Source: a virus (lineage: Duplodnaviria > Heunggongvirae > Uroviricota > Caudoviricetes). Taken from it: a stretch of DNA of 5,347 bases. Positions 1-3,000 of the stretch are shown here, one piece after another (the stretch's first letter is position 1; every line of letters starts with the position of its first letter). The stretch is taken from positions 1 to 5,347 of IMG/VR virus record IMGVR_UViG_2698536392_000005. The stretch is one strand, 5' to 3'. The position numbers are program-made.

Positions 1-3000
1 CAGCCGTACTGCCCTTTGCTCAGGTCTGCCTTCGGATGATTCAGCGTACTCCTATCCTGCACATCATGCAGGCAGTGGTCGGCCGGAATAATATCGTTAT
101 ATCTGCATGCAACCCCACCCGGCGTCACTGTACTGCGGCGCGCCAGCTGTTTAATGCGCGTATCCGGAGCATCATATGAATCCGGCAGCGGAAGCCCTTC
201 ACCGTAAGCCATGGCATTGGACTGCCCGGCCAGTACGATGACGTAGTACCAATCCGGCTCAGTTGCACCACTGACCACCACATCACCTTCTGCTGTAATC
301 GCCTGCATCAGGGTATAAGGGGTTATGGCCACCGGACTACCAAACGGCTGCCAGCCCTCTTTCAGTTTGTGTGTCAGCTTTTCCGCAAGGTCTGACGGCG
401 ACGCCGCCCTGACAACATCATAATGTTTAATCGACATCGAATTTCTCCCGTGTACAGGAACAGAGTTAAAAAGCCGGAACCGGAATCAAATCACAGGATG
501 ACCATCTGCCAGTGGCTGGTCGTAAAAAAAAGGCCGCGCCATGCGCAGCCGGAAATAAAGGGATAACGATGATAGTTTGAGAAAAACAGAAATAACACTT
601 TTGTGGCAAAGCATGGTGCCGGGTGCCTCCCGGTGAATTCAGCCGGTGTCACTGAACCCGCGTCGGCTTGCCTATAACATAATAAATGCTACCTACACCA
701 GTCGCCCCTCCGCACAGGGGGATTCACCATGCAGAAGTGTTTTTAATAAACAGCAAACAAAAAAATCAAGCATTATGCAGGCTGTTTCTTTTTATCACCG
801 GCCACAGCAATACCACAATGCCGCAGACCAGCACCCCATCCGCCAGCACCGACATGATTCTGCTGGTGAAATCCACCATCACCACCAGAAACAGCAGGAG
901 TGCAGCCACAGCCAGGCGCAGTTTTACCGTCACAGGTGATTCTCCAGACGAAGACCCAGAACACCGGCAATCTCTTCCAGCACCTTACACTCTTCCGGCT
1001 CAATTTCGCCTTCTGCCTCCGCAATGGCCACCGCCACATCCAGCACATCTTCCGCTTCACGCGTATCGTGTTTCACATCCTCGATCTCACGTAACGCCGC
1101 ACGACGACCAGTTTTAAAGTTCGTATCCAGCTGACCGATAATGGTTGCGCTCATCGCATTAATTTCTGACGTAAACGCGGACAGCGCTGGCTGATTACGC
1201 AGTACCTGTTCGATCTTCGCTTTCTCGGAAGCCTCACATTCACCATCTGCACAGGCCACCAGGTATGCGGCGTTAATCACCGCCTGTGCCAGATCGCGTT
1301 TTTCAAACTTTTTAATTTCCGTTGCCGCTCTGCGGGCTTTTTTTACCAAAAATACCAAACATCGTGACGTTCCTTTGGGTGGGTGAGCCAACGCCCGGGA
1401 GCGATCTGCCCACAGAGAAAGTCACACTGACCACTCCGTAAGCTCCCCCCGAAAGGCTCTGTGGTTGGTATGCGCCGGGCGTGGCGCGGATACAAAAAAG
1501 GTCCGCAAAAGCGAGCGAGGGAAAATAAGTGTGGTGCGTTGTACTGGGTTCGAACCAGTGACCGATTGCTTAGAAGGCTGGCGTTCTATCCCGATGAGCT
1601 AATGGCGGTTGGTGGCCCTTGCTGGATTTGAACCAGCGACCTGGCGATTATGAGTCGCTCGCTCTCACCACTGAGCTAAAGGGCCGGGCGCAGGATAATA
1701 ACGGTACGTAACTAATTCTGCAATATCATCCGTTCTGACTGACTAAATTCTGAACTTCCCTGACCGTCTGCTCAAAACGCCCGCTCTCCAGCTCAACGCC
1801 AATTGCACGACGCCCCAGCGACATTGCTGCTTTGACGCTACGGACATAAAAAAGCCAGCCACTGGGGGAGGCTGGCAAACTCGTAGAGCAAAATGCTGTT
1901 ACGCAAACTTCGTTACAGGGTCATCCTGCAATACAAAAAATACACAATATTTAGAAAACTAATAGTGCCATGTGCGATTTTTAAGATTTTGTTATTAATT
2001 GTGGTCGCACCTTCCTTTCTGTGTACTTTCCGTATAGCTCCCAGGATGCCGGATACAAAAAACCCGCTCGTCGACGGGCTTAAGCTACGTGGCAAAGCAC
2101 CCCCACTTCACATAATATTCAGTAATTAAATATTAAATCACTTATGGAGATCACGTTTTTATGGCGATAAAATGAACACTCCCGATTTCGAATGGAGTGA
2201 TTCATGATTATTATTAGAACAGAAAACGGCATCGAGAAACTTGATAACTGGGAAGAAATCACATCCAGACCAAACTTTGTTGCCAGTATAGATAAAGGAG
2301 AACAACAGTTTGAGGAAATAATTGGCTACTACAAATTTAAGGAAGAAGTCCACTGTGGCTTAACTGGCTGCAACCAACCACATCAAATGGGTTATATTGT
2401 AAAGACCTCTAGCGGCATTGAAACTAACATCGGCAATAAATGCGGCAAAAACGAATTCGGTGTGGAATTCGGCGAGAATGTTCTTAGCTTCAATAAACTA
2501 ATGCAACTCGAGACCAATCGAGAAATTATCAGAACAGCAAAAAATAAGCTCGAAGAATGGCAAAAAATCATTGAAAACATACGAAATACCAAACCCACCA
2601 TAGATTATTTATCTTCTACTATAGAAAATAGTAAAAACTATAACTACTCTGGCAGGCTTGGCGCAGCAGAAATACGCTTATTGGCAAAATCTCAAACCGG
2701 TATTGTAAGTCTATCAGAAGTTGAAACTGATAAGAAAACCAAAACAATTCTATTTGCAATGAATAAACACATGCGCGAATCTGGAGAAGCAACAAGTGAG
2801 TTCAACATGGGAAAGGTATCATTTATCCATGTGCTTTTACCAGAAAATAATCTTCGTAAGTTTTTTGTTGCGCTCAAAGAAGATCTAAAGAAAATTCAGG
2901 GCATTGATCTGCAAACAACCCCAAGCCCAGAAATTTCCAATGTTGCCCAAATCGCCAGTTCAATCGAAGAACGAATCATACGATTAAAAAACCTGAAACA

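Follow-up and report, generated by a model that had tools for sequence, protein, structure and literature searches.

A tRNA-like element beside ileZ in a lambdoid prophage: a probable hybrid of argN and argO

The element and its neighborhood

The question raised by this locus is what a full-length tRNA-like sequence with a sound T arm and poorly pairing stems represents when it lies one base away from an intact tRNA gene. The window, that is, the whole stretch of 5,347 nt analyzed (positions 1 to 5,347 of IMG/VR record IMGVR_UViG_2698536392_000005), carries such an element on its minus strand, and an earlier note had offered three possibilities for it: a decaying tRNA, a recombination scar, and an RNA that recruits tRNA-processing enzymes. 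The element is real, lies at the coordinates given in that note, and is 77 nt long. The locus contains the following features.

3240..4070, minus strand: late antiterminator Q gene, upstream (annotation; Pfam Antiterm, 1.4e-51)
1726..1839, minus strand: 3' remnant of a DNA-methyltransferase gene (RefSeq 'incomplete; missing N-terminus'), which in the parental-type prophage lies ahead of the tRNA cluster
1610..1685, minus strand: intact ileZ-type tRNA gene with anticodon CAT (ARAGORN "Met"; RefSeq tRNA-Ile; Rfam tRNA 72.5 bits; annotated by PGAP on the identical record)
1609, minus strand: single-base spacer between the ileZ CCA and the hybrid, an inherited spacer allele outside the lesion
1608..1532, minus strand (5' end 1608, 3' end 1532): tRNA-like element (the hybrid), 77 nt, CCGCCATTAGCTCATCGGGATAGAACGCCAGCCTTCTAAGCAATCGGTCACTGGTTCGAACCCAGTACAACGCACCA
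930..1358, minus strand: TerB-family gene, downstream of the tRNA cluster (annotation; Pfam TerB, 1.1e-12)

With the Q gene upstream, the locus falls within the late-regulatory region of a lambdoid prophage. The same slot, downstream of Q and upstream of the TerB or stx position, holds the ileZ-argN-argO cluster of lambdoid and Stx prophages, and ileZ is identical. The names of the cluster genes follow the annotation of E. coli O157:H7 Sakai (e.g., argN5 and argO7 of prophage Sp14), and EC4115 carries the same cluster upstream of stx2c. The TerB gene occupies the position of stx in Stx phages, where L019 has stx2c. The methyltransferase gene is full-length in E. coli EC12 and in CAU16175; the prophage of the window is visibly decayed outside the element, with this gene truncated and IS elements nearby. 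A consensus scan of the minus strand between 1300 and 2300 gave no promoter-like site. Eight cluster-like places are present in the chromosome from which the window comes, as are two ileZ-argN junctions with a 1-nt spacer, only one of which is the hybrid.

ARAGORN placed the intact CAT tRNA at 1685..1610, leaving base 1609 alone between the two sequences, as had been noted. The weight given to this spacing did not hold: at least 176 records, the Stx2c prophage of O157:H7 among them, have an intact argN, annotated as tRNA-Arg in many genomes, at the same 1-nt distance from ileZ. That the spacer between tRNA-Ile and tRNA-Arg varies by indels in Stx2 phages has already been reported (PMC2858043).

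Parentage and junction of the element

Recomputed stem pairing gave 3/7 for the acceptor stem, 3/4 for the D stem, 2/5 for the anticodon stem, and 5/5 for the T stem. The T arm (ACTGG-TTCGAAC-CCAGT) is canonical, the 7-nt anticodon loop reads CTTCTAA, and the terminal CCA is encoded, all as first described. These counts agree with the earlier statement that three of the four stems cannot pair, but the C11/A24 mismatch of the D stem is also present in the parental argN allele, which is intact and annotated, so the D stem is inherited rather than damaged and only two stems are broken. The element can be divided into three parts.

1579..1608, minus strand: argN-derived part, element positions 1–30, identical at 30/30 positions to argN of EDL933 and EC12
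1573..1578, minus strand: GCCTTC, element positions 31–36, the crossover interval in the anticodon stem and loop, common to argN and argO at matching positions
1532..1572, minus strand: argO-derived part, element positions 37–77, identical at 41/41 positions to argO of EDL933 and EC12

The argN part covers the 5' acceptor strand, the whole D arm, and anticodon-stem bases 1–3 of tRNA-Arg(UCG). The argO part covers anticodon base 3, the 3' anticodon-stem strand, the variable loop, the whole T arm, the 3' acceptor strand, the discriminator A, and CCA of tRNA-Arg(UCU). Thus, the description of the element as tRNA-Arg(UCU)-like is correct for its 3' part, and the 5' 30–36 nt come from a UCG gene. 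With the alleles of EDL933 as with those of EC12, the element equals argN[1..k] joined to argO[k+1..77] for k = 30–36 with 0 mismatches. Alignment to three intact clusters showed a gap of about 90 nt in the window with argN 5' sequence on one side and argO 3' sequence on the other, the halves being base for base those of the two genes. The argN and argO genes are 77 nt each, start 90 nt apart with a 13-nt spacer between them, and are identical at 42/77 positions; the missing length of 90 nt is therefore one repeat period (77 nt plus the 13-nt spacer). In comparison with the intact cluster, the window is short by these 90 nt, and one chimeric 77-mer, unrecognized by ARAGORN, the Rfam threshold, and PGAP, stands in place of two genes.

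An undeleted cluster with exactly the parental alleles was found in one genome only, that of E. coli EC12. This strain has ileZ, 1 nt, argN, 13 nt, and argO in tandem, with the methyltransferase gene upstream, TerB downstream, and alleles identical to the two halves of the hybrid. In-silico deletion of 90 nt from the EC12 cluster gave a sequence that matches the element, together with its 1-nt spacer, at every base, and the flanks of the EC12 cluster share 96.6% identity with the window over 1,424 nt. In both EC12 parents the acceptor stem pairs 7/7 and the anticodon stem 5/5; in the hybrid the figures are 3/7 and 2/5. It is precisely the stems spanning the junction that are broken, and the D arm (all from the 5' part) and the T arm (all from the 3' part) are as in the parents. 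The Stx2c-phage cluster was considered as the direct parent and rejected; because of SNPs in its argN and argO alleles it cannot yield the element, whereas the EC12 cluster can.

The reading that best accounts for this anatomy, with a probability of about 0.9, is that the element is an argN'-'argO hybrid pseudogene that arose by one 90-nt deletion and was later spread by prophage recombination; the proposed recombination scar is thus given an exact form, a deletion between argN and argO at their shared GCCTTC. In lambdoid and Stx prophages, ileZ (tRNA-Ile, CAU), argN (tRNA-Arg, UCG), and argO (tRNA-Arg, UCU) lie one after another between Q and the late genes, and this would be the starting state. 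Deletion between the GCCTTC copies would have cost argN its last 41 nt and argO its first 36 nt, along with the 13-nt spacer between them, presumably through slipped-strand mispairing or annealing at the short homology. The product has the length of a tRNA, with its D arm from argN and its T arm and CCA from argO, and its acceptor and anticodon stems, with one strand from each parent, cannot pair. The hybrid RNA, if made, would form no cloverleaf and would be neither processed nor charged, and the prophage would have lost both arginine tRNAs while retaining ileZ.

Deletions between short direct repeats, by slipped-strand mispairing or RecA-independent deletion, have been described classically for lacI. 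The present case is similar in that the ends lie in a 6-bp repeat (GCCTTC) 90 bp apart, one copy is kept, and the length of the deletion matches the distance between the repeats. It differs in that the repeat lies inside two paralogous structured-RNA genes, so that the product mimics a full-length gene. Candidate enzymologies are replication slippage, phage Red/RecT-type annealing, and unequal exchange. In the tyrT-tyrV region of E. coli, tandem and nearly identical tRNA copies undergo unequal recombination that yields a functional gene. The likeness is in the in-register recombination of tandem tRNA genes, with copy number reduced by one; in contrast, argN and argO are different isoacceptors with 42/77 identity, which leaves the stems of the hybrid non-complementary. 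The reciprocal (triplicated) argO'/'argN product, which would point to unequal exchange, was found in none of 5,426 genomes, and either slippage or unequal exchange may have been the mechanism. Integrase-made attachment-site tRNA fragments are also unannotated tRNA-derived sequences in prophage DNA. These are partial 3' copies of host tRNAs at prophage ends, whereas the hybrid is full-length, chimeric, and located between Q and the late genes; an attachment-site fragment was rejected, both halves coming from phage-borne genes and the locus not being at a prophage end.

Distribution and number of origins

Of 5,426 complete E. coli genomes, 22 carry the hybrid junction, at one place in each; the intact segment occupies 5,654 places in 2,201 genomes. 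The hybrid, at about 0.4% of the cluster copies, is a rare derived allele. In IMG/VR it occurs in 6 contigs, all with the identical allele; hybrids were found neither in phage records nor in GTDB species representatives. The identical 77-mer was present in 14 of 15 carriers examined, within an identical block that extends from the start of ileZ to +241 nt, and homology between carriers breaks exactly at the 5' end of ileZ. The carriers have at least three different upstream modules and come from many hosts and countries; in one of these backgrounds the Q-ileZ region is identical to that of a Stx2c phage. A search of the available literature on ileZ, argN, and argO and on hybrid tRNA genes in prophages gave nothing relevant.

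It is conceivable that the same hybrid has arisen independently in different prophages at a recurrent deletion hotspot. Every argN-argO pair seen has the GCCTTC microhomology and a period of 90–91 nt, and the range of upstream contexts, hosts, and countries would be in keeping with repeated events. Only a single allele combination has been seen, however, namely the 1-nt spacer with the 'GAACGCC' argN and the 'GAACCCAGT...GCA' argO. No other hybrid allele was obtained in sensitive mode or with a degenerate pattern covering the common alleles, and none in the 5,426 genomes carried the SNPs of Stx2c-type or UPEC-type argN/argO. The perfectly identical block around the hybrid and the break in homology at the 5' end of ileZ fit one event followed by modular recombination, and repeated origin is therefore considered unlikely. 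Under the preferred reading, a single deletion would most likely have taken place in an EC12-like cluster, and the ileZ-hybrid block would then have been moved by recombination into different prophage backgrounds.

An 80-nt non-canonical element in the argN slot of many lambdoid prophages (e.g., strain 7_26_9A, L003), found in 1,595 genomes, invites comparison. It too is unannotated and not called as a tRNA, lies between ileZ and argO, and begins with the argN 5' end. Unlike the hybrid, it keeps both argN acceptor strands and a cloverleaf-like fold, has a different interior, and leaves argO intact. It is a separate event.

tRNA competence, remaining alternatives, and meaning

In a 98-nt search with the Rfam tRNA covariance model (RF00005), the element scored 19.7 bits (E = 0.034) against a gathering score of 29 bits, and the alignment marked non-pairs in the acceptor and anticodon stems. 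It was not reported at E ≤ 1 when the whole window was searched. The same model gave 72.5 bits for ileZ, 69.1 for intact argO, and 44.4 for intact argN. The sole ARAGORN call on the window was the neighboring tRNA(CAT), and PGAP/RefSeq placed zero features over the junction in 22/22 carrier genomes. The minimum free energy (MFE) of the element is −11.3 kcal/mol (z = +0.96), with 166 of 200 shuffled sequences folding as well or better, compared with −27.9 for argN and −18.0 for argO. The MFE fold is no cloverleaf, and the T hairpin alone forms in the predicted fold of the hybrid. In model score, cloverleaf stems, and gene-finder or annotation calls the hybrid falls short of a functional tRNA, and it resembles one in its T arm, loop, and CCA. 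Its resemblance to tRNA is far above chance because all 77 of its 77 bases match two joined real tRNA genes. Judged from its sequence, it is almost certainly dead as a tRNA gene, a view that follows from the pairing and model scores.

A second alternative is that the hybrid works as a tRNA-like RNA co-transcribed with ileZ, serving as a processing signal, as a decoy for enzymes that bind or cleave tRNA, or as a source of small RNA. The element abuts ileZ and would share its transcript, the hybrid has kept a canonical T arm, the anticodon loop of a genuine tRNA-Arg, and the CCA, and its sequence is invariant in carriers with different upstream modules. However, 87 nt of the adjacent flank, which is not tRNA, are as invariant as the hybrid itself, so that linkage and recency suffice to explain the invariance; selection on the hybrid, as judged by conservation, is not supported. 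The absence of variation among copies also leaves no covariation to read. An allele found at 22 places versus 5,654 for the intact segment, whose RNA has a predicted fold no more stable than that of shuffled sequences and which matches no Rfam family other than tRNA below threshold, gives no support to the earlier suggestion of an RNA that recruits tRNA-processing enzymes, and a functional RNA is very unlikely. Some interaction with tRNA enzymes is formally possible given the perfect T arm, the CCA, and the ArgRS-relevant bases (A20 region and C35) that the hybrid retains. A form of this idea that is also very unlikely is that the hybrid, transcribed with ileZ and keeping these tRNA-Arg features though unusable as a tRNA, might act as a tRNA mimic, either as a decoy that draws nucleases or modification enzymes directed at tRNA-Arg or as a 3' trailer that alters ileZ maturation. 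If true, this could have given the block a selective advantage and helped its spread into several prophage backgrounds. No interference of the hybrid with ileZ folding is predicted.

Gradual decay of a tRNA-Arg(UCU) gene by point mutation after loss of function has next to no credibility. It would agree with the low covariance-model score, the many unpaired stem positions, and the decay elsewhere in the prophage (the truncated methyltransferase gene and the IS elements), but the alignment rules it out. Outside the shared hexamer neither half differs at any base from its functional parent (100% identity), the junction accounts for every mismatch, and point mutations would not spare the D and T arms, the CCA, and the length while breaking just the two stems that span the junction. 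Collapse of two tandem tRNA-Arg genes in assembly, to which paralogues are prone in short-read data, has a negligible probability since argN and argO (42/77 identical) are too unlike to collapse and many laboratories have recovered the same precise, in-register junction, in 22 complete genomes, with 6 IMG/VR contigs carrying it too.

Overall, the origin of the element as an argN'-'argO hybrid by deletion is an ordinary kind of prophage decay. Its main value is for annotation and for the understanding of such decay, an odd tRNA-like sequence being explained without new biology, and no new question on tRNA biology is opened. The sequence is left unlabelled by current annotation pipelines and could be flagged as a tRNA pseudogene. 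In one step, this prophage lineage would have been deprived of its two arginine tRNAs for rare codons (UCG and UCU), with ileZ kept, and a precise 38-nt junction marker follows one ileZ-hybrid block across at least three different lambdoid regulatory backgrounds.

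Setting and structure of the tRNA-like element

The window matches the E. coli 2013C-3492 chromosome (NZ_CP027445.1) at 100% identity and lies there within a lambdoid prophage. It carries the following features, in minus-strand order:

minus strand: RusA gene, followed by the Q antiterminator gene at 3240-4070 (Q confirmed by Pfam)
1726-1839, minus strand: 3' remnant of a DNA-methyltransferase gene
1685..1610, minus strand: tRNA-Ile (RefSeq name), the gene with the CAT anticodon
1608..1532, minus strand: the tRNA-like element, unannotated
930-1358, minus strand: TerB-family gene (Pfam confirmed)
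766-933, minus strand: DUF3927 gene (Pfam confirmed)
after the DUF3927 gene, minus strand: start only of a SASA/NanS-type esterase gene

Three genes occupy this slot in related prophages: tRNA-Ile(CAU), tRNA-Arg(UCG) and tRNA-Arg(UCU), for which the Sakai record uses the names ileZ, argN and argO. O157:H7 EC4115 has ileZ-argN-argO directly upstream of stx2c in its Stx2c prophage. Decay is also seen elsewhere in the window's prophage, including the truncated methyltransferase gene and IS elements past the esterase gene. The place expected for most of the methyltransferase gene is occupied by a 306-aa ORF (2204-3124, plus strand), on the strand opposite to the neighbouring prophage genes, with no Pfam or PADLOC match. 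Its full-length match is phrog_7003 (function unknown), and it has the appearance of an inserted cargo gene. On the tRNA strand at 575-761, between the DUF3927 gene and the esterase start, STnc100, an Rfam sRNA family, gave a strong hit (116.9 bits, E = 5.6e-26).

The element is 77 nt long and reads, 5' to 3' from 1608 to 1532 on the minus strand, CCGCCATTAGCTCATCGGGATAGAACGCCAGCCTTCTAAGCAATCGGTCACTGGTTCGAACCCAGTACAACGCACCA. The earlier note had described it as a degenerate tRNA-Arg(UCU)-like sequence, and a recount in the 77-nt class I tRNA layout gave the same numbers, with pairing of 3/7 in the acceptor stem, 3/4 in the D stem, 2/5 in the anticodon stem and 5/5 in the T stem, and with the CTTCTAA loop and terminal CCA present. 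The 1-nt gap after the intact CAT tRNA was also confirmed, the ARAGORN gene ending at 1610 and a single base (1609) separating its CCA from the element. This gene (1685..1610) is the only ARAGORN tRNA in the window, and the element itself is uncalled. The Rfam tRNA covariance model aligned to the element end to end but scored it at just 19.7 bits (gathering score, 29 bits), and the adjoining CAT tRNA reached 72.5 bits. Overall, the T arm, loop and CCA are the only properties of a functional tRNA found in the element, all other testable ones having failed, and no pipeline consulted annotated it. The CAT tRNA is named Met by ARAGORN and tRNA-Ile by RefSeq (ileZ type), and is presumably lysidine-modified; its antisense strand gave a spurious Plastid-ycf2 match below threshold.

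An argN'-'argO fusion and its parent cluster

Alignment with three intact clusters indicated that ~90 nt are missing from the window, with the 5' part of argN on the left of the gap and the 3' part of argO on the right. In a base-by-base comparison, positions 1-36 of the element were identical to argN of an EDL933 prophage and positions 31-77 to argO of the same prophage, so that the element is recovered without a mismatch when argN[1..k] is joined to argO[k+1..77] at any k in the range 30-36. The overlap is the shared motif GCCTTC (31-36), made up of the two final bases of the anticodon stem's 5' strand and the four bases that open the loop. Since argN and argO are each 77 nt long, start 90 nt apart and share this motif, the lesion reads as the loss, in register, of one repeat period between two 6-bp direct-repeat copies, which would also be why the element keeps tRNA length. 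The recombination scar, one of the origins proposed in the earlier note, is thus the one borne out. The annotated EDL933 argO (L004 2633-2709) is itself imperfect, with a T6/C67 acceptor mismatch (6/7).

The deletion accounts for every feature that had been noticed, and the element is now fully explained. The broken stems are exactly those that span the junction, the acceptor and anticodon stems no longer pairing because in each the two strands come from different parents. From argO come the T arm, discriminator and CCA, all wholly 3' of the junction, and the anticodon is TCT because the junction falls just before the third anticodon base. Of the three stems said to be unpairable, the D stem does not belong to the damage: it lies wholly 5' of the junction and is that of argN, including a C/A mismatch already found in intact annotated argN.

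The 1-nt spacer does not belong to the damage, as the same ileZ-1 nt-argN junction occurs with an annotated tRNA-Arg. A 42-mer running from the ileZ 3' end across the single spacer base into the argN 5' end was found in 787 genomes, with >=99% identity in at least 176, and in most exact matches listed, e.g., the Stx2c prophage, an annotated tRNA-Arg directly follows tRNA-Ile. The Stx2c prophage was rejected as the direct parent, its argN and argO alleles differing from the hybrid by SNPs. A 60-mer that demands the hybrid's argN allele together with the 1-nt spacer and the native argN anticodon arm had a full-length exact match in one genome, E. coli EC12, in the order methyltransferase gene, ileZ, 1 nt, argN, 13-nt spacer, argO, TerB, DUF3927. 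In-silico deletion of 90 nt between the EC12 GCCTTC motifs gave the window's element exactly, with flanks 96.6% identical to the window over 1,424 nt. The EC12 argN and argO have 7/7 and 5/5 pairs in the two stems broken in the hybrid. This parental argN allele (L022 3017-3093) has the D-stem mismatch, between C11 and A24, and reaches no more than 44.4 bits.

It is well known that short direct repeats give rise to deletions and that tandem tRNA genes can lose copies. The hybrid, which comes from the ileZ-argN-argO cluster found in lambdoid and Stx prophages, differs from these cases only in that its partners are different isoacceptors, which makes the product self-incompatible. No description of an argN'-'argO hybrid was found in the literature searched, and it is of low general interest.

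Distribution and proposed spread

A 38-nt probe centred on the junction, which neither parent alone can seed, matched 22 of 5,426 complete E. coli genomes at one place each, and a sensitive mode returned the same 22; none has an annotated feature at the junction. There was no match in deposited phage records or species-representative genomes, and six IMG/VR contigs carry the identical 77-mer behind ileZ and 1 nt. The lost 90-nt segment occurs at 5,654 places in 2,201 genomes, the hybrid representing ~0.4% of cluster copies.

Among 15 carriers examined, 14 have the identical 77-mer; strain 122, the remaining one, departs from it at the discriminator base alone, beyond which its flank is unrelated. 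Identity to the window is perfect from the ileZ start to ~+241 nt (150 nt in strain 122). The upstream modules are of at least three types: one has the same Q gene as the Stx2c phage (WP_000512807.1), another a methyltransferase gene of full length, and a third the truncated methyltransferase gene of the window. Where the upstream module differs from the window's (12 carriers), identity ends 0-3 nt upstream of ileZ. In a comparison of the EC4115 Stx2c prophage (L019) with loci L006-L018, most hybrid carriers were identical to that phage in the Q gene (WP_000512807.1) and the 300 nt upstream of ileZ, and had TerB/DUF3927 in place of its stx2c. The homology break between carriers with different regulatory modules (window 1685/1686; position 2907/2908 of L006-L018) lies 0-3 nt from the ileZ 5' end, so that the tRNA cluster acts as a recombination joint, with the Q/methyltransferase module on one side and the cargo module downstream on the other.

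Since the carriers show one rare allele combination, one junction and one shared block, the deletion is best read as having happened once, after which the ileZ-hybrid block would have moved among prophages by lambdoid-type modular recombination. As the reciprocal argO'/'argN hybrid is absent from the 5,426-genome collection, unequal exchange is not demonstrated, and we infer slippage or annealing at short homology.

Function and probable loss of the arginine tRNAs

On sequence and predicted folding, the element is read as a dead hybrid pseudogene. The earlier note had also suggested an RNA that recruits tRNA-processing enzymes, in whose favour nothing was found. The hybrid's predicted MFE (-11.3 kcal/mol) falls short of the average for its shuffled versions (z = +0.96; 166/200 shuffles fold at least as well), and argN and argO reach -27.9 and -18.0 kcal/mol. 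In the predicted ileZ-hybrid precursor the T hairpin is the hybrid's only part forming with any strength, and no hybrid-ileZ pairing is seen. Recency and linkage are sufficient for the hybrid's invariance among carriers, because the adjacent non-tRNA flank is equally invariant. A retained role as tRNA mimic or processing signal would be very unlikely.

The argN slot of many lambdoid prophages holds another unannotated element, of 80 nt, outside the window (e.g., L003 ~2722-2801, minus strand of the locus; NZ_CP074826.1). Its acceptor ends and D arm are those of argN, but its interior differs and its T loop is not of the TPsiC type; it is uncalled by ARAGORN and Rfam, and has a cloverleaf-like predicted fold (-31.3 kcal/mol, z = -1.9). 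It is far commoner than the hybrid (1,595 of 5,426 complete E. coli genomes); an old pseudogene and a non-canonical tRNA-like RNA are both possible readings. With such an element filling the argN slot in so many genomes, this cluster family can evidently do without a functional argN. The window's own chromosome has eight cluster-like places, and a second ileZ-argN junction distinct from the hybrid. The prophage with the pseudogene would have lost tRNA-Arg(UCG) and tRNA-Arg(UCU) in one step while keeping ileZ, and the other cluster copies in the chromosome may supply these tRNAs.
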